From sequence record NC_073318.1: a stretch of DNA of 44,240 bases. One strand, given 5' to 3'. Shown piece after piece: positions 3,778 to 40,964 of the stretch; positions within the stretch are counted from its first letter, which is position 1, and every line of letters starts with the position of its first letter. The stretch comes from Escherichia phage NTEC3. The position numbers and the translations under genes were made by a program. The notes under the pieces were generated by a model. The model had not been told where the DNA came from and searched no databases. It worked only from the letters and a program-made list of their open reading frames with translations.

Positions 3778-4096
3778 GTTTCCCCTTTCTCGATAAGTAA
3801 AGCCCCGCCATAAAGCGGGGCGCTAGTCCTTATCATTTAAACATAGAAACGGCGTAATCTCAGTAAACCAGTTACTTTTTACACAAGCAATAGGGTATGG
3901 CCCTTCCGAACGCGTCAGCGTAACTACACTCAGGACTTACGTCCCGCTCCGTTACCTGCCCGCGCCGCGGTCGCTTGTTCATACTTCACAAGCTCAGGTG
4001 GAGCTTATCATATTTTTAGTGAAAAGTCAACTATTCGAATAGTTTATTCCAACATTTACAATTCGGAGGAATAACTGGAATACGTAAATAAATAGT

Positions 4097-4125
4097 TTGC
4101 ACACCCCAATATAATAGGGTACTAT
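4097..4125 (+). promoter_or_regulatory. class A sigma70-like promoter, TTGCAC-N17-TACTAT, with AATAG-GGTA-CTATT palindrome
   Basis: -35 at 4097-4102, -10 at 4120-4125; 32-bp element identical to the copy at 38905. Confidence 0.55.
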
Positions 4126-4152
4126 TCAGTTAACTTAAACAGGAGGTGAAAA

Positions 4153-4356
4153 ATGTATGCAATTTGCGAAGTAGTTCAAGAGTTCGATGAAGAGTTCGAC
4201 GGTGACTTGTGCCGGGTTAAAAAGGTTCTGCAGGTTTTCCCTGACGCAATGTCTGCTTACAAGGCATTAGATATATTTGAACCTGGAAGATACGGGGATT
4301 ATGACACTGTTCTGAGGGTTGTCCATGAGCAGGATTTAAACACAAGATTCCGTTGA
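4153..4356 (+). CDS. moron-encoded small acidic protein, unknown function
   Basis: 67 aa; strong RBS AGGAGGT 7 nt before ATG; own promoter upstream and terminator downstream; opposite strand to flanking head genes. Confidence 0.6.
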   Translation: MYAICEVVQEFDEEFDGDLCRVKKVLQVFPDAMSAYKALDIFEPGRYGDYDTVLRVVHEQDLNTRFR

Positions 4357-11359: not shown

Positions 11360-11440
11360 CTTCTCTACTCCGTTCTCGTTGTCGATGGAGTAAATATAAT
11401 AGGGTCGTAGGTAATAGTCAACTAGTCATTGCAGAAAATA

Positions 11441-15406: not shown

Positions 15407-15546
15407 TCACTCCGTTATAGACGCCGTTGTAATCTCCGTCGCAGATGAACGGGTAGAGCATATCTTCATACTCGTCCTGCAACTCGCCTAAAGTCACTTC
15501 GCTATAATCTTTCATCCTCTGTCTCTCCTCTCGTTTGTGTAAATGA

Positions 15547-15575
15547 ATAGTAGCCTATTCTATATTAGTGTGCAA
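15547..15575 (-). promoter_or_regulatory. class A promoter variant (internal early promoter)
   Basis: Reverse complement TTGCAC-N17-TACTAT, 26/32 match; upstream of a small minus-strand ORF starting near 15522. Confidence 0.4.
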
Positions 15576-16713: not shown

Positions 16714-16738
16714 TCCTCTGTCTCGTTCCGATAAGTGA

Positions 16739-16767
16739 ATAGTATCCTATTATATTGGGGTGTGCAA
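16739..16767 (-). promoter_or_regulatory. class A promoter for minus-strand early block
   Basis: Reverse complement reads TTGCAC-N17-TACTAT (31/32 match to consensus); first early ORF about 25 nt downstream. Confidence 0.5.
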
Positions 16768-17016
16768 GAGGATAGTTACGTTGCCGTTGTGATTCTTCGG
16801 GGATGGTTGTGCCATTATTCTTATTACTTGGTAACTAAAGGGCAGGCCTTAAGCCTGCCCAATAATCGTTACATTTTTACGGTTGCGAATCTACGGCACT
16901 TTAAGAAAATCAGATACTTAAGAGATATGCTGTCGATGAGAATAGAGCTTGCCCAGGGCAACCGGAGATACTTAGGAAGGAAAGTTACAACAATTCTCGT
17001 GTTCAGTAAGCCTGCT

Positions 17017-17048
17017 GCTTAACCCTTTGCTTAACGCACGGGTTAAGC
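17017..17048. repeat. 9-bp inverted repeat in divergent control region
   Basis: GCTTAACCC ... GGGTTAAGC separated by 14 nt that re-contain GCTTAAC. Confidence 0.45.
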
Positions 17049-17138
17049 ATTCTTACAAGGTGAACAGGAATCAAAGTAACTAAGATATAGAAGCACCTTA
17101 AACGAAGATTTTCTTAATGTCAATAGGTGTGATTATGT

Positions 17139-17167
17139 TTGATTTCCCATTATTCGCAATGTATACT
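17139..17167 (+). promoter_or_regulatory. candidate sigma70 promoter for replication module
   Basis: TTGATT-N17-TATACT about 30 nt upstream of the HTH gene start at 17200. Confidence 0.35.
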
Positions 17168-17199
17168 TGGTTTCGTTAACTGATAATGAGGGCTTTGGA

Positions 17200-17370
17200 A
17201 TGACACAGAATGAAGTAGCTGAGCGTATCGGGGTTACCCGTCGTACGCTGAATAACTGGTTAAAGAGTGGGAAGTTCCCGGATTGTTGTATTCGCATTAT
17301 GGGCCGCAGGCAGCCTGGTACGTTTGACCCGGAGAAAGTGGAAGCGTGGATTAAGGAGAACGTGAAATGA
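17200..17370 (+). CDS. HTH DNA-binding protein (AlpA/excisionase-like)
   Basis: ORF track starts at TTG 17167; likely ATG 17200 (MTQNEVAERIGVTRRTLNNW) after GAGGG; classic HTH. Confidence 0.55.
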   Translation: MTQNEVAERIGVTRRTLNNWLKSGKFPDCCIRIMGRRQPGTFDPEKVEAWIKENVK

Positions 17371-17600
17371 CAGAGTTTCAGTCACGCGTATTTACGGCAG
17401 TCGTTTCATTAACACGTAAAAAAGGGTCGTGCAGCGTTATCGACTTGCGCCGTAGTTATTTTAAGTACTATAGTTCCGCCATTATTGAAGGGTCGTTGAA
17501 GGTACTGGTTAAATCTGGTGTCGTGAAAAATGTTGGCGGGAAATATAGTGCTGTTGCCGAAGTTCGCGGAATGACCGCTACTTTAGAAGACCTGGAATAA
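17367..17600 (+). CDS. hypothetical protein with C-terminal LEDLE tail
   Basis: 77 aa; start overlaps previous stop (ATGA); C-terminus ATLEDLE resembles tails of two downstream replication proteins. Confidence 0.5.
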   Translation: MTEFQSRVFTAVVSLTRKKGSCSVIDLRRSYFKYYSSAIIEGSLKVLVKSGVVKNVGGKYSAVAEVRGMTATLEDLE

Positions 17601-17617
17601 AAGAAAGCCCCGACGCG

Positions 17618-19900
17618 GTGAACGCCGAGGCCAAATTACTTGCTGAAGGAATATACAACATGTCCGATGTAATTTTATCCTACTCGTGGTCCCGTCGCAA
17701 CGCGCGGGCAGAGAAAAAGGATATAAACGTCAGAACCACGCATGCGGCAACACTGGACGACCTGAAAGAGTTAATCCAGCCGCTCGATGCTGTTCGTGAC
17801 GGGATTAACCCTAAGACCGCGCCCGGCTATATCACAGCCGCGTGCGACTCTACGCACAGCACCGTAAAAGACCCGGAAACTGGGGACTTTAAGCAAGCAC
17901 GTAAAGGCTTCTTCTATCGCTGTGACGCGTCTGTAAGCAAATCGTCGCTCGCCTATCTGGACTTTGACAGTGCAACGCCGGAGGAGTATCAGGAAGCGGT
18001 GCGCCTGGTTAAGCGCAGCCGCCAGGCTATGTGCCTTTACACTACGGCATCCCATACTGATGAGGTCCCCCGCTTCCGCGTCGTCATGCCGCTAGGTCGC
18101 CCGGTCGAAGGTGGTGACATCATCCGCGTTCGTCATGGATTGCTGGAGCACTTCTTTAAAGGCATGGGCGCGGACCGCAGTGGTTTTACTCTGTCGCAGC
18201 CGATGTACCTGCCACCGGTCGGCTCTACCGTTATCTGGTCACGACGCAACGACCTGATTGACCCGGACGAGTTGCTGGAAGGTATCCCTGCCGTTGACGT
18301 TAGCAGCGCATCGGATTACCAGATACCTGAAGAACTGCGCACCGCGTTTACTGATGCGTTCGAGGCACTGGCGTTTGAGTACGGCGGCATCATGACGCCC
18401 CGCGGCCTTAAGATGCCAGCTACACCAGAACACGCAGAAAACTACAGCGACCCGACGCCTCGCCCGGACGACTTCCTGTTGTGTTTTCCGCGCGAGGGAT
18501 ATGAAGCGCCGAACGTAACCATGATTCACGACACCGACATTACGGCAACTGAAGGCATGTCTCCGAAAGAGGTGTGGAAGTATGCGTGCGACGCGACCGG
18601 GCTGCCGTTCAGTGAAGTGGCAGAGGCCATAGGTTGGGGTGCGCGTGAATCCGTTTCATGCAGCCTCGACGACCTGGAAGACGAGGATGACTCAGAGGAG
18701 TACGAGCTACCGGAACCTGTAAAGGCTGATTTCGTCGTAGAAGGGTATATGCCGTCGGATTGTATATGGGATATCGTCGGGGAGTCGGGCACATACAAAT
18801 CGTTCTATACTCTGGGGATGATGTACCTTAGCGCCGCCGGATACCGGTTCGCCGGGGCGGACACCCAGCGTTGCCATCACTTCTATATCGACGGTGAGGG
18901 GGGTGCTGCTACACGTACACGTATTGACGCACTCGCGGCTAAATACGGCGAGGAAGGTAAAGATTATGTACACGTCATCGATATGGGCGAAGTCGGCAAA
19001 CTGAAGAGCCTGATTAAGTTAATGCGCGAAACTGCCGGCGACGAGCCAATCGGCATGGTCGCGTTCGACACCCTAAACCAGACGCTGGCCCTGACGATTG
19101 ATAAGTTCGACGAGAACAGTTCATCAACGGCAATCGGCATGGGTAAAGTCATCGCCATCCTGAAAGAAGTGCGTGACGCGACTAAAGCCGCAGTAGGCGT
19201 TGTCCACCATACGCCGAAGGGTGGAAAGAAAGCACGCGGCAGTGGGGCGCTGTATGCGGGTGTTGACGTGGAACTGACAATCGAACGTGCAACCGACCGT
19301 CAAATAAACGTATACCACTCGAAATTTAAGCACGGTCCTCAACAGAAAACGGTTGGCATGGTGCTGGAGTCTGTGCAGTTCCGCGAAGCTCCGCCGCCGA
19401 AAGAGTACCGTGCGGTTGAGTTCCTGGGGGGCACAGAAGAATACGGCACAATCGTAAACCTGGACCTTCCTGAACCACACAAGGCGCTTGTGTTGATGCC
19501 GTGGGGTTTCGAGCCGTTCAAAACTGACGAGGAGAAAGAGCGGGAAGAAGGGTTGACGAAAGAAGGTAAGCAAAAAGTAAAGGAAGAAGTTAAACGCGGC
19601 AGGGATGAAGTAAGGAAGGAGTCAATACTTTCGGCACTGGAAGACCTGCAACAGTCAGATGACACAGGTCGCGGTTTTACTCAGCAGCAGATAGTGGCTC
19701 GTTCCGGTGACTTCTCTGTGACTAACACCCATCTTGATAAAATGTTGAAAGATGGAGAACTAATGCTTGGTTGCGATGCTAACGGCGAAGTAGTACCGAG
19801 AACATATCGTATACCCGAAAGAATAGGGGATAGATTAAGGCCGAAGACACTATACGAACCAAATGAGATGCTGGTGGTGACAGAGGAGGATTTGGAATAG
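17618..19900 (+). CDS. DNA primase / helicase (RepA/DnaB-like ATPase domain)
   Basis: 760 aa; Walker A-like GESGTYKS, Walker B MVAFDTLN, VVHHTPKGG block typical of RepA-like ATPases; C-terminal VTEEDLE. Confidence 0.7.
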   Translation: MNAEAKLLAEGIYNMSDVILSYSWSRRNARAEKKDINVRTTHAATLDDLKELIQPLDAVRDGINPKTAPGYITAACDSTHSTVKDPETGDFKQARKGFFYRCDASVSKSSLAYLDFDSATPEEYQEAVRLVKRSRQAMCLYTTASHTDEVPRFRVVMPLGRPVEGGDIIRVRHGLLEHFFKGMGADRSGFTLSQPMYLPPVGSTVIWSRRNDLIDPDELLEGIPAVDVSSASDYQIPEELRTAFTDAFEALAFEYGGIMTPRGLKMPATPEHAENYSDPTPRPDDFLLCFPREGYEAPNVTMIHDTDITATEGMSPKEVWKYACDATGLPFSEVAEAIGWGARESVSCSLDDLEDEDDSEEYELPEPVKADFVVEGYMPSDCIWDIVGESGTYKSFYTLGMMYLSAAGYRFAGADTQRCHHFYIDGEGGAATRTRIDALAAKYGEEGKDYVHVIDMGEVGKLKSLIKLMRETAGDEPIGMVAFDTLNQTLALTIDKFDENSSSTAIGMGKVIAILKEVRDATKAAVGVVHHTPKGGKKARGSGALYAGVDVELTIERATDRQINVYHSKFKHGPQQKTVGMVLESVQFREAPPPKEYRAVEFLGGTEEYGTIVNLDLPEPHKALVLMPWGFEPFKTDEEKEREEGLTKEGKQKVKEEVKRGRDEVRKESILSALEDLQQSDDTGRGFTQQQIVARSGDFSVTNTHLDKMLKDGELMLGCDANGEVVPRTYRIPERIGDRLRPKTLYEPNEMLVVTEEDLE

Positions 19901-19927
19901 GTAAAAAGAAAGGGGCTTTAAGCCCCT
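19900..19927 (-). terminator. terminator hairpin at 3' end of XRE gene
   Basis: AGGGGCT-TTA-AGCCCCT stem-loop; minus strand followed by TTCTTTTTAC. Confidence 0.45.
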
Positions 19928-20133
19928 TCACCTAACGCCAGCCACTTGGCGTCTACTTCCAGAACTTCCGCCAGTTTGAACAGCGTTGCCGGGCGGACGT
20001 CCTGAGTTACTCCAAGTGCCAGTTGGTTAATCGCGCCCTGGGAAACGCCGGTCAGGGCCGCCAAACGGCGCTGGGAGATGCCGAGTTCTTTGCGGCGTTG
20101 TTCTACACGGATGCCTAGTTCAGATGGTTGCAT
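19918..20133 (-). CDS. XRE-family (Cro/CI-type) HTH transcriptional regulator
   Basis: 71 aa; LGISQRRLAALTGVSQGAINQLALG is a canonical XRE HTH; RBS AAGGAG; divergent from plus-strand promoter. Confidence 0.75.
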   Translation of the reverse strand: MQPSELGIRVEQRRKELGISQRRLAALTGVSQGAINQLALGVTQDVRPATLFKLAEVLEVDAKWLALGEGA

Positions 20134-20154
20134 GTCAATTACTCCTTAGTCAGT

Positions 20155-20183
20155 TGATATGTGAATAGTACCATATTAATTAT
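20155..20183 (-). promoter_or_regulatory. candidate promoter for XRE repressor gene
   Basis: Minus-strand -10 TACTAT (plus coordinates 20155-20160) inside AATAGTACCATATT palindrome, 22 nt upstream of XRE start codon; -35 weak. Confidence 0.4.
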
Positions 20184-20197
20184 TTTAGAAAAGCCCA

Positions 20198-20226
20198 TTG
20201 ACATGTGAATAGTTCGCTATTATAGT
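20198..20226 (+). promoter_or_regulatory. class B sigma70 promoter, TTGACA-N17-TATAGT, operator in spacer
   Basis: -35 20198-20203, -10 20221-20226; spacer carries AATAGTTCGCTATT palindrome; drives gene at 20258. Confidence 0.6.
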
Positions 20227-20257
20227 TAGCCCATACCAAACGAGAGGAGAGAAACAA

Positions 20258-20758
20258 ATGTTAGAACAATTCTTAAAATTACTGGAACGTTTCGTAGTTG
20301 CACATGAACTGATTGCTGCGAACAGTGCGAAACAGTCAGCACAAGTTGCAGCGCCGTTAGAAGTAGAGACGGTAGTGTATACCAAAGAAGCGGTAGCTGA
20401 GTGCGAAAAAGAAGCAACAAAAGAAATCCCTGTTGAAGGTGAAGACATCGTTGACGCTAAACCAGCAGAAGAAGAGAAGCCGAAACGCAAGCCGCGTAAA
20501 GCTAAAGTAGAGGAGCCGACTCCAGAACCAGAAGAAGAGAAAGAAGAGGTCGATTACCAGTCTCTTCGTGACCAGATTCAGGCTATCGACGATGCGATTA
20601 ACGAAGGCCCAAGCGATGCCGCGTGCGACGATTCCGATGAACTGCTGGAGGAGTTCACCGGTAAGAAAATGAAGATTGCCGCGATTAAAGACGAAGACCT
20701 GGCTGAATACCTGAAACGCCTGACGGCAATCAAGAACAAGTATTTCGAAGAAGAATAA
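20258..20758 (+). CDS. acidic low-complexity protein, unknown function
   Basis: 166 aa, Glu/Lys-rich; RBS GAGAGGAGAG; 32 nt after class B promoter. Confidence 0.5.
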   Translation: MLEQFLKLLERFVVAHELIAANSAKQSAQVAAPLEVETVVYTKEAVAECEKEATKEIPVEGEDIVDAKPAEEEKPKRKPRKAKVEEPTPEPEEEKEEVDYQSLRDQIQAIDDAINEGPSDAACDDSDELLEEFTGKKMKIAAIKDEDLAEYLKRLTAIKNKYFEEE

Positions 20759-20801
20759 TTTATCTGGCGGCCTCCGGGCCGCTTTAACAGAGGGTCGTAA
20801 T

Positions 20802-21074
20802 ATGATTTACCAACTCTACCGAGGTATTGACCGACGGGATAACACAGAGGCGTTGTGGCTGTTGCGTGCGCCGTCCGGCGCGCACCAGATGGAAGAGATG
20901 GCCTACCTCGGCAAAGTACCGAAGCCGAAAGATATAGGCCGTCACCTGTCGCAGATTAAGCGCACGACATTCGTTAAAAGTGACTTTTATGTCTTCGAGT
21001 CGATGTATAGCTGGGCGATGCATTGTGACCACAAGACACGACATTTAATTGACCAGTGGGAGGTCAGGGTATGA
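20802..21074 (+). CDS. hypothetical protein
   Basis: 90 aa ORF with GAGGG RBS; overlaps next gene. Confidence 0.45.
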   Translation: MIYQLYRGIDRRDNTEALWLLRAPSGAHQMEEMAYLGKVPKPKDIGRHLSQIKRTTFVKSDFYVFESMYSWAMHCDHKTRHLIDQWEVRV

Positions 21075-22312
21075 TTTTAAAAGAACGCGGCGGCAATAAC
21101 GATGTGCACGCCCTGCTGTCGCCGTCAGGGGCTAAAAAGTGGCTAAGCTGCGCCGCATCGCTGGCCTGTGAGAAAGATATTCCCAACACGTCAGGTAAAG
21201 CCGCCGTTACAGGTACAGCGTGCCACACCATAGCGGAGGTCCATCTCAACGCCTATATCCGCGGAACTGCACTGCCGTTAGAGCGTGAAGTTGGCGCTTA
21301 CGTGCTGGACGAGGGTAAAGGCCAGATTAAGGCGCTAATCAGCCCGATGAAAGGTGCTGTACTGATTACGGCGGACATGATTGAGCAGGTGCGCAAGTAC
21401 ACCGACTACTGCAAAGCGATTATAGACGTAGCGACTTACGCCAAGCTGGAAATGCGTGTCAATCTTACTGAGGTATTGCATCCGGGGTATGAAGGCGTTG
21501 AGACGTTCGGAACCGCTGACCTCGTTGCTGTCCAGGAACTGGCAAACACCGACGAGCACATGCTCATTATCGGCGACATGAAAACCGGGCGGCATCGCGT
21601 CGAAGCGAAAGAAAACAAGCAGCTTATGCTTTACGCTCTCGGTGTTTATCGTCGACTCAAGAGACGTTATAACATAACAACCGTTCGTCTGGTCATCTTC
21701 CAGCCTTACGCTGGGGGCGCGACAGAGTGGGACATCTCGGTTGAAGGACTGGAACTGTTCGCTAAGTTCGCACAGAAACGCGCGCTGTTAGCGCTTGATG
21801 CGTATTTCCGTGGCAAGAAGAACCTGAAAGCGTCGGACTTCAAGCCATCGGTAGATGGTTGTCAGTGGTGCCGGTTCTCTGAACAATGCGCTGCGCGTAC
21901 AAAGACGGTTAATTCTGTACTGGCGGAAGAACTGGAAGACGACTTTGTGCTGGAACTGACGCCGGAGCAACTCGTAGCTGAGTATGAGAAGTTGCCGCTG
22001 TTGCGCCAGCACATCGACAAGGTTGAGAAAGCTATGGCGGCCGCGTTGCATTCAGGTAAGAAAGTTCCTGGTTACAAGTTGGTTGAAGGCCGCCCGGGTA
22101 ATCGTGCATGGAAAGACGCGGAGAAAGTAACAGAACTCTACGGCGACAAGCTGACTAAAGAAGTGCTCATGTCACCTACCGAAGCTGTTAAAGTCATACC
22201 GGAAGAAGAACTGAAAGACTTCATTACCCGTAAGCCAGGCGCACCATGTGTCGCAACGGCAGACGACAAACGTCCTGAGTGGAATCAGGTAACAGAGGAG
22301 GATTTGGAATGA
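21071..22312 (+). CDS. DUF2800-like PD-(D/E)xK (Cas4/RecB-like) nuclease
   Basis: ADLVAV ... IGDMKTG nuclease-like motifs and C-terminal Cys cluster CQWCRFSEQC; likely start ATG 21071 after GGGAGG; C-terminal VTEEDLE. Confidence 0.65.
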   Translation: MILKERGGNNDVHALLSPSGAKKWLSCAASLACEKDIPNTSGKAAVTGTACHTIAEVHLNAYIRGTALPLEREVGAYVLDEGKGQIKALISPMKGAVLITADMIEQVRKYTDYCKAIIDVATYAKLEMRVNLTEVLHPGYEGVETFGTADLVAVQELANTDEHMLIIGDMKTGRHRVEAKENKQLMLYALGVYRRLKRRYNITTVRLVIFQPYAGGATEWDISVEGLELFAKFAQKRALLALDAYFRGKKNLKASDFKPSVDGCQWCRFSEQCAARTKTVNSVLAEELEDDFVLELTPEQLVAEYEKLPLLRQHIDKVEKAMAAALHSGKKVPGYKLVEGRPGNRAWKDAEKVTELYGDKLTKEVLMSPTEAVKVIPEEELKDFITRKPGAPCVATADDKRPEWNQVTEEDLE

Positions 22313-22512
22313 TTCAAGTAAATGAAATGCCCACAGATAAAGATTTTGTGATGATATGGCGCTGGGGCGGTTATATCCATTCGGAATCGTTTACGTTCCT
22401 GAACGGCACGATGGTGCGATACAACCATGTGGAGGATGAATTCGAACCCGTTGATATGAATGATTTCGAGAACATAGTCCGTATTGCGAAATTTTATTTG
22501 ACACCTGAATAG
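22309..22512 (+). CDS. hypothetical protein
   Basis: Likely start ATG 22309 (MIQVNEM) after GAGGAGG; 67 aa. Confidence 0.45.
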   Translation: MIQVNEMPTDKDFVMIWRWGGYIHSESFTFLNGTMVRYNHVEDEFEPVDMNDFENIVRIAKFYLTPE

Positions 22513-22526
22513 TTAGCTATTATAGT
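22498..22526 (+). promoter_or_regulatory. class B promoter upstream of DUF2815-like gene
   Basis: TTGACA 22498-22503, 17 nt spacer with AATAGTTAGCTAT, TATAGT 22521-22526. Confidence 0.55.
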
Positions 22527-22585
22527 TCTAATCACTGACCGGGCAGCTTCCCGGAGTAAACGAAACTTAAAAGCGAGAAATTAAG

Positions 22586-23212
22586 ATGGGTATTAAACTG
22601 AATCTGCGTAAAGTAAACACTGCTTGGGTTAACGTATTTGAACGTGAAAAAGACCGTGAAAACGATGATGGCTCAATCACTAAAGGCCAGTACAGCGCGA
22701 CTATCATCCTGCCGTCTGACCATGCTCAAATCGATGCACTCTACGACACCGTTTACGCTGTAGTTGAAGAAGCGTTAGGCGCAGCCGCTGCCGAGAAATG
22801 GATGAAGTCCAACTACGGTGAAGGTAAGCACATGGATAAATGCGCGATTAAAGACATTGCCGAGCGCGACAATCCGTTTGAAGACTTCCCGGAAGGCTTC
22901 TACTTCAAAGCGAAGGCACAGAAACAGCCGCTGATTGTAACCTCTAAAAAAGGTGAGACTCAGGTAGAGCAGGACTTCAACGTAGACGGCGAACAGATTG
23001 AAGGTGAACAGGTTTACAGCGGATGCTTAGCTAACGTAAGCGTTGAAATCTGGTTCAGCCAGAAATACAAAGTCCTCGGCGTTAACCTGCTGGCGATTAA
23101 ATACGTTGGCGAAGGCAAAGCGTTCGGCGGTTCTAAAGTCGCTGCGAGCGTCAATGACCTGGAAGACGACGAAGAAGATGAAGCACCGCGCCGCGAACGT
23201 CGCCGCCGCTAA
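22586..23212 (+). CDS. DUF2815-like protein (ssDNA-binding candidate)
   Basis: 208 aa; sits between DUF2800-like nuclease and DNA polymerase as in the known DUF2800-DUF2815-PolA phage module; acidic/basic C-terminus. Confidence 0.55.
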   Translation: MGIKLNLRKVNTAWVNVFEREKDRENDDGSITKGQYSATIILPSDHAQIDALYDTVYAVVEEALGAAAAEKWMKSNYGEGKHMDKCAIKDIAERDNPFEDFPEGFYFKAKAQKQPLIVTSKKGETQVEQDFNVDGEQIEGEQVYSGCLANVSVEIWFSQKYKVLGVNLLAIKYVGEGKAFGGSKVAASVNDLEDDEEDEAPRRERRRR

Positions 23213-23231
23213 TATCTGAATCAATTTAACT

Positions 23232-23256
23232 AAGGCCCTTCATTGGGCCTTTTTAC
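23232..23256 (+). terminator. terminator / attenuator between DUF2815-like gene and DNA polymerase
   Basis: AAGGCCC-TTCATT-GGGCCTT hairpin followed by TTTTT, 16 nt before polymerase ATG. Confidence 0.45.
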
Positions 23257-23271
23257 TAGGGGTCAAAAATA

Positions 23272-25452
23272 ATGAGTTACCTGTTCTTAGACTTTGAAAC
23301 ATTCTCAGAAGCCGATTTGAAGAAAGTCGGTTCTTACGCTTACGCCGAACACCCGTCAACCGAAGTGCTTATCTGTACATATGCTTTTGACGACGAACCT
23401 GTGCGGGTATGGGATTGCACCGACGGCAGCGACATGCCGGGGGATTTACACCGCGCACTGCGCCGCCTTGTTAAGCCCAACAGCCGCATCAAGATGGTGT
23501 GGCACAACGGTGGACTTTTCGACCGCCTAATCATGAAACACTGCTGGGACTTTGATATTCCGGTAAGTAACACCATTGATACTATGATTTGGGCGTTCCG
23601 TCACGCGCTGCCGGGTTCTCTTGATGCGCTGTGCGAAGTGCTGGGCGTGTCTGCAGACAACGCGAAAGATAAACGCGGCAAGGCTCTGATTAAGCGTTTT
23701 TCTAAACCTACGCCGAAGAACTACAAAATCCGCCGCTACACCGCCGATACGCACCCGGACGAGTGGGCGCTGTTCATCAAGTACGCCGTTAGCGACATCA
23801 CTGCGATGCGTGAAGTCTTCCATAAGCTGCCGCGTTGGGGTAACTCCGAGTTCGAAGACCGTGTACTGGAACTGGACCAGTTGATTAACGACCGTGGGTT
23901 TAAGGTTGATGTGACGCTGGCGGAAGCCGCGATTGAAGCCGTGGAAAAACACAAGGCCAAGCTACAGGAAGAAGCACAGCGCAAATACGGCGGCTCGCTT
24001 ACTGGTAAAGACTTCCTGCCGATTCTGCGTGAACTGGCCCCCGCACACCGCATACACAACGCACAGAAGTCGACGCTGAATGACCTGCTGGCCGATGATG
24101 ATTTACCTGACGACGCCCGCACGATTATCGAAATGCGCCTCGGGGCCGCGTCAACAGCGTCCACGAAATATAACCCGCTGCTGTTAGGCCGCTCGTCGGA
24201 CGACCGACGCCGCGGTTGTATCCAGTACGGTGGGGCAAAGCGTACGTTACGGTTCGCGGGTAAAGGCTTCCAGCCACAGAACCTGGCGCGCGGGTACTAT
24301 CACGATGATGAACTGGATAAAGGTATTTCAGCGTTACTTAAGGGCCGCGCGCATCGCCGTTTCGATGTCGCTAAGCTAACGGCATCGACGGTGCGTAGCT
24401 GCATTATCCCGGAAGCCGGAAAAAAGTTTGTCGTCGCCGATTACTCTAACGTTGAAGGTCGGGGGCTTGCGTGGCTGGCAGGCGAAGAAACCGCGCTAGA
24501 TACGTTCCGCGCCGGGCTGGACATTTACTGTGTAACCGCGGGTAAGATGTTCGGCATGGAGCCGGATTACATTAAGAAGGAACGCAAAGACTTGCGCCAG
24601 ATTGGTAAAGCCTGCGAGCTTGGCCTCGGCTACGCTGGTGGTGTTGGCGCTTTCGTTCAGTTTGCTAAGAACCTCGGACTTGACCTTGTTGATATGTCAA
24701 AAACAATGGACGGTACTTTCCCGGACCACATCTGGGCGGCTACTGCACGCGGCTATGAATGGGCACGTATTCAGGAAGCCAAGCGACCGCCGCGACCCGG
24801 GGAGAAGGATGACCGACCATCGTATATTCTTGATAAGAAAGTGTGGCGTACCTGTGACGCTATCAAGCGTATGTGGCGAGAGTCACACCCTGAAACAGTA
24901 GCTTTCTGGCGAGATATTGAAGACGCAGCTATGGCCGCTATCCGCAATCCAGGTAAAGAGTTCACCGCGGGGCCTAGGGGGGTTAAGTTTTCGCGCAACG
25001 TAGAGACAGACAACAACGGCAACAAAGTCGCCGGCTGGTGGTTGCGCATGACGTTGCCGTCGGGTCGCGTTATGTCTTATCCGGGCGTCGGGTTAAGCGT
25101 GTCGAAAGAAACAGACGAAGATGGAAAAGTGTCTACTAACGTACGCATCAAGTACCAGGGGGAGAACCAGTTAACCCGTCAGTGGGGCTTCCAGTACACC
25201 TACTCTGGTAAACTCGTGGAAAACTGTACTCAGGCGCTGTGCCGTGATTTGCTGGCCAATGCACTGCTGAACGTTGAAGCAAACGGCTATCCTATTGTGC
25301 TTCACGTACACGACGAAATTATCTGCGAAACACCAGATACGCCAGAATACAATGTTGCAGAGCTTGAGCGGTTGATGTGCGAATTACCGGAGTGGGCGGA
25401 GGGGTTCCCTCTTGTAGCGGAAGGTGCGGAGATGAAGCGATATGCCAAGTAA
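23272..25452 (+). CDS. family A DNA polymerase with 3'-5' exonuclease domain
   Basis: 726 aa; N-terminal DFETFS exonuclease motif; C-terminal VHDEIICE polymerase motif C. Confidence 0.85.
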   Translation: MSYLFLDFETFSEADLKKVGSYAYAEHPSTEVLICTYAFDDEPVRVWDCTDGSDMPGDLHRALRRLVKPNSRIKMVWHNGGLFDRLIMKHCWDFDIPVSNTIDTMIWAFRHALPGSLDALCEVLGVSADNAKDKRGKALIKRFSKPTPKNYKIRRYTADTHPDEWALFIKYAVSDITAMREVFHKLPRWGNSEFEDRVLELDQLINDRGFKVDVTLAEAAIEAVEKHKAKLQEEAQRKYGGSLTGKDFLPILRELAPAHRIHNAQKSTLNDLLADDDLPDDARTIIEMRLGAASTASTKYNPLLLGRSSDDRRRGCIQYGGAKRTLRFAGKGFQPQNLARGYYHDDELDKGISALLKGRAHRRFDVAKLTASTVRSCIIPEAGKKFVVADYSNVEGRGLAWLAGEETALDTFRAGLDIYCVTAGKMFGMEPDYIKKERKDLRQIGKACELGLGYAGGVGAFVQFAKNLGLDLVDMSKTMDGTFPDHIWAATARGYEWARIQEAKRPPRPGEKDDRPSYILDKKVWRTCDAIKRMWRESHPETVAFWRDIEDAAMAAIRNPGKEFTAGPRGVKFSRNVETDNNGNKVAGWWLRMTLPSGRVMSYPGVGLSVSKETDEDGKVSTNVRIKYQGENQLTRQWGFQYTYSGKLVENCTQALCRDLLANALLNVEANGYPIVLHVHDEIICETPDTPEYNVAELERLMCELPEWAEGFPLVAEGAEMKRYAK

Positions 25453-25573
25453 ACTGATTATTGCGGTACTGGCGGGATTTGCCGCCGGTGTCTACTGTCA
25501 CGAGGGACAATACGGCATGATGGTTGCCATATTGGGCATGTTCATCGCAATTTATATGTGGGTGCTGGAATGA
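25442..25573 (+). CDS. micro-ORF, single-pass membrane peptide (43 aa)
   Basis: Hand-found; ATG overlaps polymerase stop; hydrophobic core IIAVLAGFAAGV / MMVAILGMFIAIYMWVL. Confidence 0.35.
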   Translation: MPSKLIIAVLAGFAAGVYCHEGQYGMMVAILGMFIAIYMWVLE

Positions 25574-25659
25574 AAATTTACTGGTTTTATGAAGAAGACT
25601 GCCGAATCTGCCCGCGCTGCGGGATTGAGCATACGAAACGTGAGGGGTGCGTATTATGA
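25570..25659 (+). CDS. micro-ORF, Cys-rich zinc-ribbon-like peptide (29 aa)
   Basis: ATGA overlap with previous ORF; CRICPRCG ... C pattern. Confidence 0.3.
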   Translation: MKIYWFYEEDCRICPRCGIEHTKREGCVL

Positions 25660-25809
25660 CAATGTTTGTATTTAGGACCATAGTAACCATGCTCGCACTG
25701 TTACTCGGTGCGGGAATAGCTGCTATGTTCTGTTACGGCCTGTTCTTTCAGTTTGCCGGTGTTGCCATTCTAGGCTGGGTTTTCCTTACCTGGATGCTGC
25801 GGTCATGAC
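25656..25809 (+). CDS. micro-ORF, membrane peptide (50 aa)
   Basis: ATGA overlap both sides; two hydrophobic stretches. Confidence 0.35.
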
Positions 25810-26089
25810 TAAAGAGGGACGCATCCAGAAATACGCAAAAGAGCGATTCGAGGCCATTGGTGGCCTCGTTCGTAAGCTGTCTTATGAGGGGCGCTCCGGC
25901 GCCCCCGACCTGCTGGTAATTCTCCCCGGCGGCATCGTCTGGTTCGTCGAGGTTAAGAAAGACGAAAACACGAAGCCAGACCCGCACCAGATACGAGAGC
26001 ACGAGCGGATGCGTAAACGCGGTGCAAATGTTTTTGTCGTCGGTTCGTTTAAACAGGTTGACGACCTAATAGCGAACTATTATAGTTAG
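25805..26089 (+). CDS. VRR-NUC domain nuclease
   Basis: 94 aa; GAPDLLVI ... VEVKK fits the PD-(D/E)xK VRR-NUC signature. Confidence 0.65.
   Translation: MTKEGRIQKYAKERFEAIGGLVRKLSYEGRSGAPDLLVILPGGIVWFVEVKKDENTKPDPHQIREHERMRKRGANVFVVGSFKQVDDLIANYYS
26058..26086 (+). promoter_or_regulatory. class B promoter upstream of 63 aa / methyltransferase / SNF2 genes
   Basis: TTGACG 26058-26063, spacer with AATAGCGAACTAT, TATAGT 26081-26086; overlaps 3' end of VRR-NUC gene. Confidence 0.55.
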
Positions 26090-26119
26090 TCCTACACCAA
26101 CAATATAAGGAATTGAGAA

Positions 26120-26311
26120 ATGAAACACGAATATGACCGAAAACCTGCACGTGACATCGTACCAGGCGACATGATTTTCAACGTTAAGACCCGTCGTCCT
26201 GTTGCCGTTGATACAGTGTTCGTCGAGTCGAACGGTAAACTGGTTATCGAAGATGTAACCGGCAATATTACGGCGTTCGGGCGTAAAGAGTTAGTTCTGG
26301 TGGCAAAATGA
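26120..26311 (+). CDS. hypothetical small protein, coupled to methyltransferase
   Basis: 63 aa; RBS AAGGAA; stop overlaps methyltransferase start (ATGA). Confidence 0.45.
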   Translation: MKHEYDRKPARDIVPGDMIFNVKTRRPVAVDTVFVESNGKLVIEDVTGNITAFGRKELVLVAK

Positions 26312-27102
26312 ACTATTACAACGAATGGGATAAAGGCGCAGCCGCGTGGCTGCGTGAATTAATAAAACAGGGTCACATACCTTTTGGAGTTGTAGATGAA
26401 AGAAGCATTACCGAAGTTAGACCAGAAGACCTTGACGGGTTCACCCAGTGTCATTTTTTCGCGGGTATTGGCGGCTGGCCTCTCGCGCTCAGACTTGCGG
26501 GAGTTTCTGAAGATACGCCTATATGGACGGGAAGTCCGCCTTGCCAACCGTTTAGCACGGCAGGAAAGCAACTCGGACAGTTCGACCAGAGACACCTCGC
26601 ACCTGTGCTCCTCGACCTCATCAGCGAGTGCCACCCTCCAGTCATCTTTGGGGAGCAGGTTGCGGCAGCAATTGCAAAATCGTGGATGTGCGATTTACAA
26701 ACTCACCTGGAAAGAGAAGACTACGCCGTCGGGTTTGCCGTACTCCCAGCTTGTAGCGTCGGCGCACCGCACAAAAGGAATCGATTGTTCTTCGGAGCGC
26801 AGCAACTGGCCAACACCGTGTGCGAACAACTCGGCGGGAGCAGGCCATCAGGGCAGGAACGGGGGCCACAATCTGCAAACAGAGGCATCTCTGACACAGC
26901 CAATCCGCCTAACGGGTTCTGGTCAGATGCTGACTGGCTCGGATGCCGGGATGGAAAATTCAGGCCAGTTGAACCCAGCACATTCCCGCTGGCTAATGGG
27001 GTACCCGCCAGAGTGGGACGATTGCGCGGTTACGGCAATGCTATCGTCCCGCAAGTAGCCGCTGAATTTATAAAGGCGTTCATGGGGGCCGTAAATGAGT
27101 AA
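26308..27102 (+). CDS. DNA (cytosine-5)-methyltransferase, compact form
   Basis: Motif I FAGIGG, motif IV PCQPFS (catalytic Cys), ENV-like GEQV, motif VIII-like HKRNRLFF, motif X GNAIVP; only 264 aa. Confidence 0.7.
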
Positions 27103-28519
27103 GTTTCAAAGGCGCGAATACCAGAAGCTAATGACTTCGTTCATGTTGCGGCACCATCGCTGTAATATTTGGGCGAGCATGGGCGCCGGGAAGACTGGCA
27201 GCGTACTGTGGACATTAAACCGACTGTTCCGCAACGGGCAGCTTACAGAAGAGGACCGCGTGTTAATCCTCGCCCCGTTGCGCGTTGCGTCCGGCACATG
27301 GCCGGCGGAACAAACTAAGTGGAATTTCCCATGTCTGCGTGTCGTAGACGCGACCGGTTCAGAGAAGCGCCGCATCGCGGCGCTGGAGTCAGATGCTAAC
27401 GTGGTGTGCACGAACTACGAAGTTATCGAGTGGCTTATTGACTACTACGGCAAAGACGACTGGCCTTTTACCGTTATCGTTGCCGATGAAAGCACGAAAC
27501 TGAAGTCATTCCGCAGCCGTTCAGGCGGCAGCAAGAGGGCAAAGGCGCTTAGTAAAGTGGCATTTGGCAAAGTTAAGCGTTTCATTAACCTGACTGGCAC
27601 GCCGTCACCAAACGGCCTCAAGGACTTGTGGGGGCAGAACTGGTTTATCGACGCAGGCGAGCGCCTGGGGTCATCGTACACAGCATTCACCGACCGCTGG
27701 TTTAACTCGGTACAGAAAGGGAAATCTGCGATGGCCCGTGAATACCACGCACGCCCGGGTGCGGATAATGAAATTCACCAGAAGATGAAGGACATTAGTC
27801 TCACGATTGACGCCGCCGAGTGGTTCGGGTGTGAAGCGCCGATTATTGTGCCGGTTGAAATCGACCTGCCGAAGAAAGCACGTCAGGCGTACATCGATAT
27901 GGAGGAGAAGTTATTCGCGGAACTGGAAAGCGGAGAAGTTGAAGCGGCTAACGCTGCGGCGAAGACGTCGAAGTGCCTACAGATTGCCTCCGGTGCCGTG
28001 TATGTATCGGGGCCAGATGGCGAATCAACCAAAGAATGGGAGAAAGTGCACGACACGAAACTTGATGCGCTGGAGTCAATTGTGGAGGAGTTGCAGGGCG
28101 CGCCGTTGCTGGTCGCCTATCAGTTCAAGCACGAACTTGAGCGCATCCTTAAGCGATTCCCACAGGCGCAGGCGTTTTCCAAAGGCGCGAAGGGTAATAA
28201 GCAGATGGAAGCGTGGAACCGCGGCGAAATAGAAATCTTATGCGTACACCCTGCGTCAGCCGGGCATGGTTTGAATTTACAGGACGGCGGCCATCATCTG
28301 GCGTTTATTTCACAAGGCTGGAATCTTGAGCACTATTTGCAGGTTGTCGAGCGCATCGGCCCTGTTCGCCAGAAACAAGCTGGGCACGAGCGCCCGGTGT
28401 TCCTTTATCACATAGTCGCTAAAGACACGCTGGACGAGGTTGTTGCCGCGCGTACCGACGAGAAGAAATCGGTACAGGAAGAGTTGCTTAACTACATGAA
28501 GAGACGAGGTAAGAAATGA
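27095..28519 (+). CDS. SNF2-family helicase / ATPase
   Basis: Walker A ASMGAGKTG, DExx box VADEST, LTGTPSPN motif III. Confidence 0.75.
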   Translation: MSKFQRREYQKLMTSFMLRHHRCNIWASMGAGKTGSVLWTLNRLFRNGQLTEEDRVLILAPLRVASGTWPAEQTKWNFPCLRVVDATGSEKRRIAALESDANVVCTNYEVIEWLIDYYGKDDWPFTVIVADESTKLKSFRSRSGGSKRAKALSKVAFGKVKRFINLTGTPSPNGLKDLWGQNWFIDAGERLGSSYTAFTDRWFNSVQKGKSAMAREYHARPGADNEIHQKMKDISLTIDAAEWFGCEAPIIVPVEIDLPKKARQAYIDMEEKLFAELESGEVEAANAAAKTSKCLQIASGAVYVSGPDGESTKEWEKVHDTKLDALESIVEELQGAPLLVAYQFKHELERILKRFPQAQAFSKGAKGNKQMEAWNRGEIEILCVHPASAGHGLNLQDGGHHLAFISQGWNLEHYLQVVERIGPVRQKQAGHERPVFLYHIVAKDTLDEVVAARTDEKKSVQEELLNYMKRRGKK

Positions 28520-28653
28520 ACATCATAGCCCCGATTCCAGCATTGCAAAAACGTATCAAGGAACTCGAAGAGGAGGTTCTACGCCTACGGCAACAGAGAG
28601 ATGCCGCTAATGCGCAACTGGCGTTTGTGCTGGAGAAGTTATCAGAAGAGTAG
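28516..28653 (+). CDS. small coiled-coil peptide (45 aa)
   Basis: Hand-found; ATGA overlap with SNF2 stop; followed by terminator. Confidence 0.3.
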   Translation: MNIIAPIPALQKRIKELEEEVLRLRQQRDAANAQLAFVLEKLSEE

Positions 28654-28684: not shown

Positions 28685-30862
28685 ATCGCAAAGTAAGGAT
28701 TTGGTGAAGTTTGGCACCCACGGCATCCTGTCAGAAATTACTAAATCTCTGATTAATATGCCGCAGTCTGCAGATGCGCCGCTATAGGTAACTTGGATAT
28801 TAAAACTAGTTGCCTGGCTTCTGGCAAGACTGATGGCTGCAAAATAATCGTTACCGGTCTGTGGTGATATAGTCACATATGAGGTTCCTAGTCCTATTTT
28901 TACGACAGTATTTGTCCCATAACTGGTAAATTGATGACGGAAAAGAACATAAACGCGGTCGTGATTGTTGAAAACCGCGTTTGTAGTTGTGATTGGTATT
29001 GTGAATGTTTTTGTGGTAGCGTCTCGTGCAAAGGTAACCTGTAGATTATCACCAGAAGTAGCCATAGTTACGCCTGATTCCTGCGGGTAAGCAGAACCGT
29101 TATTGGCGTTAAGCGCAGACCTTTTAAAAAGAACAAATGGTTTTGAAGACATTTGTTCACTCTCCCAGGTACTTGTCCCACTATCGTCCCAAAAAAGACC
29201 CTTAAAATAATACATTACACTGGATGACACGGTCCAACCGGCTAAATCAAACATGCTCCCGGTTGCATCTGTTAAGTCACAGTTAATAAATCTATTAAAT
29301 CTGTTGGTGGAGTTCTGGTATACGCAACAAGGTGTCGTTGTTCCTGTTGTGATATTAGGGTCCGCAAATGATACTGAGTTGAATGTTACGTATTCGCACC
29401 CATCCATGATAATGCCGCCGCGAGTCACAGCGCCGGAGCGTTGGATATTAGTAAATGTACTGTTACGCATATTCGCAAGAAGGGCAAAAGTACAGTCCGC
29501 TGTTAATGACCCATCGGCATTGTGGGCTTCTCCGTGGAAATCTGTAAAATGAATATCGCGGAAGCCCTTGACATCAGATGCACTATTTCCGGCTAGGCTT
29601 TCTGAATAGATGGCGTATGTTGCGCGACTCGCCCATCCTACACGGTCGAATGTACATGCAAAAATCTGTCGGTCTACATGGCAGGAGAACCTGATACTAG
29701 GGTTGCCAGATGTCGCCCATGAAGGGTTGTTGTCGATTGTGCTGAAAAACATACAATCCCGGAATGACAGGCCTGTTAAATTTCCACGGTCGATATCTGT
29801 ATTAGTCCTGAGCACAAGCCCACCGCCTAATGTCCATACGTGGCTTAATTCCAGGTTCTCCACGTCTCCAGATGTTGCGTTTTTAGGGTGGATAACAACA
29901 GCAGCATCGAAGGTTCCAGATACAGATATCCGACGGACGACGGAATTACGGCAGCCGCCAATGTGCAGCCCAACCACATTCGGCTGGGAACCATCTGCGT
30001 TTATCTGGAAACCTTCAATATAAAACGGGTCTTGTCCTGTGTTATCAATAGCGACTATAGCGGGTCCTGTGGAACCGGCAATTACGTTAGTGCCAGTAAA
30101 GTCAGGGAGAGCCATAAAGTATGTTTCTGGGTAGACCCCAACAATACGCGTCCTTTTTGGAAGGTTAAGAGTAGAATCAAGCCAAAAGAACCCAGCCGGG
30201 AAACGTAAAGTAACCCCAGTACCGATATTCTCGCTAGTTGCTGCCGCTAAAGCCTGCTCAATGTATGTCCTTACGCTTCCTAGTGCTTTTGACGCGTTAA
30301 CATCGTTTAGAGCTGCGATCACGTTAGCTGGAAGGTAGTCAAGTATGTTTATCTCTGTTTTTGCTGCTTGAGTCTTGCGGTAGTCAAACTCTGCCTGTAC
30401 GGTCCTGCCGGATGTTGTCCCAACTAACCCTGCGCCAGTGCTTAGGGCCAAATCACGGCGCAATGCAGCTTCACTAACGGCAACCCATGCGGTCTGGCCT
30501 ACTCCGCCCGTAGACGCCGGGGTTGAAGATGCCGGGATGGTTTTTGGCAGAGCACCCTTCCATGCATAATAGTTGCCGTCGCCTGATGGCCCTGGCCACA
30601 ACACCGCCAGGTCAGCGTCGTTAACGCCCAAAGTCCCACCTGTTTCGAATGTGAAAGACGCAGGTCTGAACCCGGCGTCGCGCAACACGGCGGGGAGTGT
30701 CTTCTGCGTCTGCCCTGTAACCTGATTTGTTGCGTAATCAATATCAGCACCAGTAGCAACACCACCGGATTTACCAGTAATAACCTCAGCTTCAAAAATC
30801 TGGTGCTTCTTGGCGGTCTGTAAATCCGCCAGGCTTAAAACGTCACCGCATACGCTTGACAT
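28682..30862 (-). CDS. tailspike / tail fibre protein (receptor binding, beta-helix candidate)
   Basis: 726 aa, last gene of tail module, Gly/Asn/Thr/Ser-rich repetitive C-terminal part; fold not verified. Confidence 0.55.
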   Translation of the reverse strand: MSSVCGDVLSLADLQTAKKHQIFEAEVITGKSGGVATGADIDYATNQVTGQTQKTLPAVLRDAGFRPASFTFETGGTLGVNDADLAVLWPGPSGDGNYYAWKGALPKTIPASSTPASTGGVGQTAWVAVSEAALRRDLALSTGAGLVGTTSGRTVQAEFDYRKTQAAKTEINILDYLPANVIAALNDVNASKALGSVRTYIEQALAAATSENIGTGVTLRFPAGFFWLDSTLNLPKRTRIVGVYPETYFMALPDFTGTNVIAGSTGPAIVAIDNTGQDPFYIEGFQINADGSQPNVVGLHIGGCRNSVVRRISVSGTFDAAVVIHPKNATSGDVENLELSHVWTLGGGLVLRTNTDIDRGNLTGLSFRDCMFFSTIDNNPSWATSGNPSIRFSCHVDRQIFACTFDRVGWASRATYAIYSESLAGNSASDVKGFRDIHFTDFHGEAHNADGSLTADCTFALLANMRNSTFTNIQRSGAVTRGGIIMDGCEYVTFNSVSFADPNITTGTTTPCCVYQNSTNRFNRFINCDLTDATGSMFDLAGWTVSSSVMYYFKGLFWDDSGTSTWESEQMSSKPFVLFKRSALNANNGSAYPQESGVTMATSGDNLQVTFARDATTKTFTIPITTTNAVFNNHDRVYVLFRHQFTSYGTNTVVKIGLGTSYVTISPQTGNDYFAAISLARSQATSFNIQVTYSGASADCGILIRDLVISDRMPWVPNFTKSLLCD

Positions 30863-38904: not shown

Positions 38905-38933
38905 TTGCACACCCCAATATAATAGGGTACTAT
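38905..38933 (+). promoter_or_regulatory. class A promoter driving the tail-module accessory operon
   Basis: -35 TTGCAC 38905-38910, 17 nt spacer, -10 TACTAT 38928-38933; identical 32-mer to 4097-4128. Confidence 0.55.
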
Positions 38934-38961
38934 TCACCAGTAACTTACTGAGGGTATAATT

Positions 38962-39288
38962 ATGCGTAAATTAGTATTAGCTCTGGGGTTTATGTCTTTT
39001 GCTACTTTTGGAGCCCCGTGCGAACAGGTATTTAGTGAATCCGTTCTTATGACTTCTGGTGTGCTTGATAAAGCCGACCTTACTATTGTAAAGGCATTTA
39101 AAGACTCTACAGTTCGCGAGTGTGAGGCTGCCGTAGTGGTTGGTAAATCGGGCCTGCCTCCGCAAGCCGTAACATACTCGGTAATACGTTCTGTAGAGAA
39201 AAACGGAGACGCGTTTTACAGCCTACTGACAGCCACCCGCCTGCAAATGGTGATGACCGGGTGGGCGATAGGCGCGGAAAGTAAATAG
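38962..39288 (+). CDS. secreted small protein (signal peptide), accessory operon gene 1
   Basis: 108 aa; N-terminal MRKLVLALGFMSFATFGA signal peptide; GAGGG RBS; class A promoter 30 nt upstream. Confidence 0.55.
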   Translation: MRKLVLALGFMSFATFGAPCEQVFSESVLMTSGVLDKADLTIVKAFKDSTVRECEAAVVVGKSGLPPQAVTYSVIRSVEKNGDAFYSLLTATRLQMVMTGWAIGAESK

Positions 39289-39353
39289 TCGCCTTTATTT
39301 AAAGGAATGCACTGTGGTTAAATAGGACAAATCCTAAACACGAGGAAGTAAGC

Positions 39354-40951: not shown

Positions 40952-40964
40952 GGGAGATTGATTT

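Follow-up and report, generated by a model that had tools for sequence, protein, structure and literature searches.

A conserved 14-bp dyad shared by early, accessory and replication promoters of a Kagunavirus genome is a candidate operator for a small 434 Cro-like protein

The window, by which we mean the whole 44,240-bp stretch of DNA analysed here, is a complete genome of a Kagunavirus (Guernseyvirinae), a small lytic siphovirus of E. coli, with its genes arranged as follows.

16704 down to 1, minus strand: head, packaging, lysis and small early genes
16807-28653, rightward: replication module
38797-28682 and 44240-41224, minus strand: tail genes
4153-4356 and 38962-41195, plus strand: two small inserts

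No RNA polymerase gene was found in the window, where the open reading frames (ORFs) of at least 700 aa are those of the helicase-primase, DNA polymerase, tailspike, tail protein and tape measure, and none is listed in the annotation of the collinear record vB_EcoS_SCS92 (ON548432.1). Nor does the window carry a cI-like partner, an integrase or a lysogeny module, and this group of phages is regarded as strictly lytic (PMC7203180, PMC9825357). The vB_EcoS_SCS92 genome matches the window coordinate for coordinate, with 1,461 differing positions and no indels. We note that the two are equal in length and in gene coordinates, that the differences are gathered in clustered blocks of up to 14% per kb, and that the absence of any indel is unusual for natural mosaic divergence.

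The replication module contains three plus-strand promoters of the form TTGAC(A/G)-N17-TATAGT, which we refer to as class B promoters P1-P3 and which are listed here with the units that lie downstream of them.

20198-20226, plus strand: P1, TTGACA-TGTG-AATAGTTCGCTATT-ATAGT, with the -35 TTGACA at 20198-20203, putative operator O1 (AATAGTTCGCTATT) at 20208-20221 and the -10 TATAGT at 20221-20226; ATG at 20258
20258-22512: unit downstream of P1, with two hypothetical proteins, a PD-(D/E)XK exonuclease and a small ORF
22498-22526, plus strand: P2, TTGACA-CCTG-AATAGTTAGCTATT-ATAGT, with the putative operator at 22508-22521 and the -10 TATAGT; ATG at 22586
Unit downstream of P2: gp2.5-like SSB (22586-23212) and DNA polymerase
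26058-26086, plus strand: P3, TTGACG-ACCT-AATAGCGAACTATT-ATAGT, with the putative operator at 26068-26081 and the -10 TATAGT; ATG at 26120
26120-28653: unit downstream of P3, with a small ORF, methyltransferase and helicase

The three promoters had been picked out earlier from the sequence alone, and we found them to be correct to the base. Each is followed at 32-60 nt by an ATG in the same orientation and the downstream genes have ribosome-binding sites; P2 overlaps the 3' end of the ORF at 22309-22512, and P3 falls within the 3'-terminal part of the endonuclease gene (25805-26089). P1, P2 and P3 match 11, 11 and 10 of the 12 sigma-70 consensus positions, respectively, with an N17 spacer, and they are the top matches in a sigma-70 scan of the 15-29 kb region. 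In the rest of the genome this generic scan did no better than shuffled sequences and is therefore silent on late promoters. A search of the whole window for TTGAC-N18-TATAGT with at most one mismatch returned 4 matches where 0.53 were expected, and none of 100 shuffles reached 4. The best reading of these hexamers is that P1-P3 would be host sigma-70 promoters, each at the head of one of three transcription units that follow one another in the replication module. They do not resemble MerR-type activator sites, in which a weak promoter has an over-long spacer of 19-20 bp, as here near-consensus hexamers stand at the optimal spacing of 17 bp.

A fourth class-B-like promoter, TTGACT-N17-TATATT, is found on the minus strand at 11393-11421 with the right half-site CTATT only. 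It lies just 3' of a poly-A/T terminator region, its block ACTAGTTGACTATT is kept in Kagunavirus and Jerseyvirus, and it may be constitutive or under different regulation.

The sequence-only reading had also described AATAG-N4-CTAT in the spacer of each class B promoter; this is present in all three, and the full dyad is one base longer, a 14-bp AATAG-N4-CTATT. Across the whole window the shorter form gave 15 strand-hits at 8 sites versus 0.25 expected (0/100 shuffles), and a chance origin of both the promoter pattern and the dyad is ruled out by the shuffles. The perfect 14-bp dyad occurs at seven sites (4113, 15546, 16738, 20208, 22508, 26068 and 38921), and all seven lie within a predicted core promoter immediately 5' of a gene. 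The same half-sites had been said to occur in a second group, the class A promoters, which holds true at the four sites outside P1-P3. Class A has the form TTGCAC-N17-TACTAT, or TTGCAC-N10-AATAGGnTACTATT, in which the -10 TACTAT is made from the right arm of the dyad.

4097-4126, plus strand: class A promoter with the putative operator AATAGGGTACTATT at 4113-4126 overlapping the -10; would drive the lone plus-strand gene 4153-4356
38905-38934, plus strand: class A promoter with the putative operator at 38921-38934; would drive 38962-41195 (hypothetical protein, phosphoesterase, HNH and a small ORF)
16738-16767, minus strand: class A promoter with the putative operator at 16738-16751; would drive the leftward small early genes from 16704
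15546-15575, minus strand: class A promoter with the putative operator at 15546-15559; would drive the leftward genes from 15515

The conserved sequence is wider than the dyad and forms a 22-bp module, TGAATAG-N4-CTATTATAKT, whose orientation to the gene is reversed in class A; neither the extended module nor this inversion is explained by a simple operator model. When read in reverse, class A contains a class-B-like core, which at 16738 is TCGATA-N17-TATATT (16728-16756) and is aimed into the replication operon. This reverse core is kept in Kagunavirus and has the form TCGATA-N17-TATGTT in Salmonella phage Jersey, and the arrangement suggests overlapping divergent promoters that may have one operator in common at 16738.

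We note that the interval between the -35 and the putative operator of class A (4103-4112, 38911-38920 and 16752-16761) includes an extra conserved box, ACACCCCAATAT, which in Jersey is AACCAAACAT; this is more conservation than a spacer needs and the box could be the site of a second protein. At 4025-4044 there is also a perfect 16-bp palindrome, AACTATTCGAATAGTT, in which the two half-sites are in inverted order. It abuts a minus-strand TTGACT in an unusually long region of 375 bp located 5' of the spanin and head genes, with a strong minus-strand terminator (3821-3802) separating this region from the first gene.

Roles other than protein binding at promoters were considered for the dyad and rejected. 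As an RNA element or terminator it would have a 5-bp A+T-rich stem with no T-run, located 5' of the predicted start, and Rfam had no match in the window; as origin iterons or a packaging site it would be ill-placed, the sites being single, dispersed around the genome and each in a promoter.

Two small DNA-binding proteins encoded in the replication module are candidates for binding the dyad, and are listed here with the features around the first of them.

19918-20133, minus strand: gene for a 71-aa XRE/Cro-C1 HTH protein (XRE), the candidate operator-binding repressor; a single-gene unit with the RBS AAGGAG
19909-19929: G+C-rich hairpin where the helicase-primase and XRE genes converge, probably a bidirectional terminator
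20182-20209, minus strand: predicted XRE promoter TTCACA-N16-TAAAAT (10/12 matches; a consensus match only)
20164-20177: imperfect second putative operator O2, AATAGTACCATATT, 44 bp from O1
17200-17370, plus strand: gene for a 56-aa HTH_17 (excisionase-like) DNA-binding protein (Pfam HTH_17, E = 2.1e-7), the rival candidate binder

XRE is the only minus-strand gene within the replication module, and its divergent orientation relative to P1 was seen in each of the three lineages compared (Kagunavirus, Jerseyvirus and SE1/Cornellvirus). The predicted XRE promoter has a -35 that overlaps O1, in the left arm, and a -10 that is separated from the XRE start codon by O2, all within a control region of 124 bp. 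O2 is the left operator arm kept by a decayed tandem duplicate of P1 (TTGATATGTGAATAGTACCATATTAATTAT, 20154-20183) located 44 bp upstream, which is invariant in Kagunavirus and has AATAGTACAGTAAT as its counterpart in Jersey. A predicted promoter placed between O1 and O2 is typical of the layout of an autoregulated repressor gene, and the layout recurs in Jersey and the SE1 lineage.

The XRE protein belongs to Pfam HTH_3 (PF01381; 49.7 bits versus a gathering cut-off of 23, E = 3.9e-13) and matches PHROG transcriptional repressor families. Its best PDB sequence matches are 434 Cro and the DNA-binding domain of 434 repressor (E of about 1e-5, with 36-42% identity over the aligned region), and in the alignment the equivalents of Gln28, Gln33 and Arg43 of 434 repressor are present in the XRE protein of the window, those of Gln33 and Arg43 being retained in Kagunavirus XRE only and not in Jerseyvirus. 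A single-sequence AF2 model (pLDDT 81) has four DSSP helices, with a short turn at 43-45 in the place of the 434-type fifth helix. Foldseek comparison of this model gave TM scores of 0.6-0.7 to HipB, C.BclI, 434 repressor/Cro (about 39% identity), P22 c2 and SinR; the E-values, all weak (4e-3 or higher) for so short a chain, support a generic XRE fold only. The model thus agrees with a predicted helical bundle of the 434 Cro / P22 c2 type.

Dyads of the form (T/A)GTAG-N4-CTAC were also seen in three unrelated viral contigs, about 100-130 bp upstream of a distant XRE-like gene in divergent control regions. Although their 5-N4-5 geometry and TAG/CTA core match those of the phage dyad, we set them aside as evidence for an XRE operator, the recognition helices being unrelated.

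We compared the dyad in XRE-centred 20-kb loci from IMG/VR and in the whole genomes of Jersey, SE1 and Dhillonvirus SSL-2009a. Two to six perfect dyads were found in every Kagunavirus locus and two to four in every Jerseyvirus locus. A tally of motif-selected sites might be subject to ascertainment bias, and it was repeated with alignments of the 110 nt upstream of the three class B downstream proteins from Kagunavirus and Jerseyvirus, anchored on the first 50 residues and not on the motif, with the same outcome. The ten half-site columns are the lowest-entropy positions of the promoters, with a mean column entropy of 0.07 bit that is below those of both hexamers (0.13 bit for the -10 and 0.29 bit for the -35), compared to about 0.45 bit for the flanks, 0.88 bit for the linker between the -35 and the dyad, and 1.06 bit for the central N4 (half-sites versus N4 plus linker, Mann-Whitney p = 3e-10). 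Each group of promoter orthologs has six to eight N4 variants, and in the case of P2 there are eight with the right arm invariant. In four of the loci (L012, L014, L016 and L018) we also noted an extra ORF between P3 and its usual small gene (the ortholog of 26058-26120), with the promoter and putative operator remaining at the upstream position despite the insertion.

The -35 and the dyad are separated by 4 nt in class B and by 10 nt in class A, and the Jersey ortholog of 38921 (TTGCAT-N7-AATAGTGGCCTATT, with the -10 TATTAT) has 7 nt between them; the dyad centre is thus at about -18.5, -12.5 and -15.5, respectively, and in each case within the polymerase footprint. With a constant sequence at varying distances from the -35, the dyad behaves as an element in its own right, one that overlaps the polymerase site in every case. 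Arms that do not vary, a centre that does and a register that shifts are what one would expect where a symmetric dimer binds, and not of bases read by sigma-70. These comparisons support a single cis-element that early, accessory and replication promoters have in common and that is under strong purifying selection throughout.

The two candidate genes and the motif are distributed among the relatives as follows.

Kagunavirus: XRE at least 93% identical, HTH_17 present, motif perfect
Jerseyvirus: XRE 49% identical, HTH_17 87.5% identical, motif perfect
SE1/Cornellvirus (L003 and L034-L037): XRE 41-43% identical, HTH_17 absent, variant ATTAG-N4-GTAWT
Dhillonvirus SSL-2009a: no XRE, no HTH_17, no motif

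The perfect dyad is absent from the SE1/Cornellvirus lineage, where the variant ATTAG-N4-GTAWT is found at the same promoter positions, in both registers and both orientations; it is asymmetric at half-site positions 2 and 5, and has 7 matches in L003 versus 1.9 expected and is not enriched in the window. In this outgroup both XRE and the motif have diverged, while Kagunavirus and Jerseyvirus have the motif in common despite different recognition helices in XRE (SQGAINQL and SQSLITHL, respectively, with an identical operator in both). Dhillonvirus SSL-2009a has a homologous replication module with polymerase and SSB, and its SSB promoter is a plain TTGACC-N17-TAGATT.

This repeated element has been reported before. 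In the Kagunavirus fBC-Eco01, PHIRE returned a "phage RNA polymerase promoter" with the consensus tgAATAGTa-ccTATTat-T in seven copies (PMC9825357, Table S2), which is the same repeated element as described here, again seven per genome and including the copy beside the XRE gene. The dyad symmetry, the surrounding host-type hexamers and the adjacent XRE gene are not discussed in that paper (PMC9825357). With no RNA polymerase gene in the genome, the element cannot be attributed to a phage RNA polymerase, and our analysis corrects this published misassignment of the motif. Seven PHIRE promoters are also reported for vB_EcoS-Golestan (PMC7203180), and we assume them to be the same element. The record for Salmonella phage Jersey (NC_021777) annotates promoters "similar to TTGACA(N15-18)TATAAT" at 29238-29266, 32925-32953 and 39893-39920, and these are the orthologs of P3, P2 and the class A promoter at 16738, respectively; neither the palindrome nor a regulator is mentioned there, and the counterpart of P1 divergent from XRE is not annotated. 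The only RNA-seq study of a Kagunavirus, on K1B4, was carried out at a low effective infection and gives gene-level time classes, which are too coarse to bear on the model; it places one HTH gene among the early ones. Our literature search found no paper that notes the dyad symmetry, links the dyad to the XRE gene or tests these regulators experimentally.

434 Cro and 434 repressor bind 14-bp operators (ACAA-N6-TTGT) in which the outer bases are conserved and the centre is variable. The dyad described here is likewise 14 bp long with 4-5 conserved outer bp in each half, a non-conserved centre and an overlap with promoters, and the candidate XRE is also a 71-aa HTH_3 protein; however, the half-site is AATAG rather than ACAA, and the window lacks the cI, integrase or lysogeny module. 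The tandem OR1-3/OL1-3 clusters found between divergent cI and cro genes in 434-type phages were not seen in the window, which has one O1/O2 pair and six other operators that are single and dispersed. Lambda-type shut-off offers a further likeness, in that a small early HTH dimer acts at operators overlapping early promoters and damps early and replication genes as well as its own, as we suggest might occur here; lambda Cro, in contrast, belongs to another fold class and has two operator clusters as its targets, whereas the single protein proposed here would serve about seven promoters set apart around the genome. The C proteins of restriction-modification systems are also small XRE-fold dimers which bind dyads in their own promoter region and time expression (C.BclI and C.AhdI are among the top fold matches of XRE), but they act on one operon rather than on a genome-wide set of promoters, are activators first, and have C-boxes that bear no sequence relationship to the sites described here.

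The explanation we prefer, to which we would give a probability of roughly 55%, is that the operators are read by a dimer of the 71-aa 434 Cro-like XRE protein, which would repress the early, accessory and replication promoters and its own. In this model all of the operator-bearing promoters would fire on phage entry. XRE would then accumulate from its own promoter after infection and its dimer would bind the AATAG-N4-CTATT operators in all seven promoters, where the protein would cover -25 to -12 in class B or -19 to -6 in class A and keep RNA polymerase out or hold it in place. It would thus damp the early, accessory and replication promoters, and would lower the activity of its own promoter by way of O1, which lies at the -35, and O2, just 3' of the start. 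The units controlled would be the exonuclease unit of P1, the SSB and DNA polymerase of P2, the methyltransferase and helicase of P3, the leftward small early genes from 16738 and 15546, and the plus-strand accessory cassettes at 4113 and 38921. Overall this would amount to a Cro-type early shut-off in a strictly lytic phage.

XRE is favoured as the binder because of its HTH_3 family, its kinship to 434 Cro, its divergent position with two sites bracketing the predicted promoter, and its phylogenetic profile. We consider it the likely binder on these grounds, and recognise as points against it the 49% identity and differing helices at the same operator, the better-conserved HTH_17, and the asymmetric SE1 variant. 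The sequence-only reading had proposed one regulon, under a repressor or an activator, that spans early genes, accessory morons and replication genes: a single regulon is supported by the shared and conserved cis-element and by XRE in an autoregulatory position, but an activator is unlikely, as the site is inside the polymerase footprint and the class B hexamers are near consensus with the optimal 17-bp spacer, and therefore need no activator.

The motif is already in print and a Cro-like repressor at promoter-overlapping dyads is a textbook mechanism, and the general surprise is small. Phages of the Guernseyvirinae (Kagunavirus and Jerseyvirus) are among those most often isolated for therapy or biocontrol of E. 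coli and Salmonella. The Kagunavirus CM001 is in use as a chassis for synthetic biology (PMC11990801). Our analysis offers a cheaply testable model for the timing of early and replication genes in Kagunavirus and Jerseyvirus, and strong host-type promoters, a compact 14-bp operator and a candidate 71-aa repressor would together be portable engineering parts.

Alternatively, the dyad may be the operator of the 56-aa HTH_17 protein encoded in the rightward early operon, with XRE having another role, which we consider rather unlikely. This protein is restricted to genomes with the perfect AATAG-N4-CTATT (441 records) and is absent from SE1/Cornellvirus, where the perfect motif is absent too, its 87.5% identity between Kagunavirus and Jerseyvirus is in step with an invariant motif, and its operon begins at the 16738 element. 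However, the lineage that has XRE without HTH_17 still has the enriched motif variant at the same promoter positions, and the element persists wherever XRE is found, even when HTH_17 is not, and differs between two phage lineages on the same Salmonella species, which together point to a binder encoded by the phage and most of all to XRE. Direct repeats, bound by monomers, are the usual targets of small HTH_17 or Xis-like proteins, and without an obvious dimerisation domain the HTH_17 protein is a poor fit to a perfect dyad; its gene also has no flanking pair of sites, unlike that of XRE, and a PDB search with the protein gave no significant match, leaving it without an informative solved homologue.

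It is also unlikely that there is no dedicated regulator and that the 22-bp module is a phage-specific promoter core which was spread by duplication and kept for strong host-polymerase promoters. Conservation outside the dyad (TG before and ATAKT after) would fit such a core, as would the selection by PHIRE of a whole 20-mer as the promoter motif; the decayed tandem copy beside P1 indicates that modules of this kind do duplicate, and the SE1-lineage variant has the same asymmetric changes at several sites, as in copies related by descent. Sigma-70 is not known to read spacer bases from -25 to -13 with such specificity. The half-sites are better kept than the -35 while the N4 and linker drift, which is the signature of a dimer that binds a dyad, and this explanation also has to contend with a dyad in three registers relative to the -35 and with a homologous Dhillonvirus promoter that has none.

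A bolder version of the preferred explanation is improbable: that the whole early programme of a strictly lytic siphovirus is under one lambda-style Cro without cI at about seven dispersed promoters, with the 22-bp module acting two ways so that occupancy would flip the early direction to the opposite one (replication or late) at 16738 and perhaps at 4113 and 38921. Quite unlikely, in turn, is that XRE binds the dyad as an activator or two-way switch which represses in the class A direction and favours the opposed core promoter, for example for rightward replication transcription from 16738. The class-B-like core of the reversed class A elements, conserved at 16728-16756 in Kagunavirus and Jersey, is consistent with a switch, and two class A elements are in divergent regions facing late operons. 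Nevertheless, the reverse -35 is poor at 4113 and 38921 (2-3 of 6 positions), the Jersey ortholog of 38921 lacks a reverse -10 and the Jersey head operon lacks any such module; in a 17-bp spacer, a centre at -18.5 is where a repressor would sit, and the class B promoters need no activator. We have demoted the reversed class A element as a promoter for the late operons, as it is not conserved in Jersey, and a general early-to-late switch is not supported.

We regard it as very unlikely that a host transcription factor such as a MarR/SlyA-type dimer binds the dyad: the MarR/SlyA-type consensus, TTAGCAAGCTAA, has the same TAG-N4-CTA core, and most regulators are common to E. coli and Salmonella, as would suit an identical motif in Kagunavirus and Jerseyvirus, but the motif follows phage lineage and the presence of XRE and is absent from Dhillonvirus on E. 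coli, and SE1-like phages have a different variant from Jerseyviruses on the same host, Salmonella enterica, which argues for a phage-encoded rather than a host binder.

Finally, we note that the 5' leader of the SSB gene downstream of P2 (22527-22585) has a near-invariant hairpin, CACTGRCCGGGCAG...CCCGGAGT, whose conservation reaches as far as the SE1 and Cornellvirus lineages, despite the changed operator in the promoter there. Its base pairs never vary, so that no covariation was seen, and it might serve as an operator for translation or as a stabilising hairpin at the 5' end.
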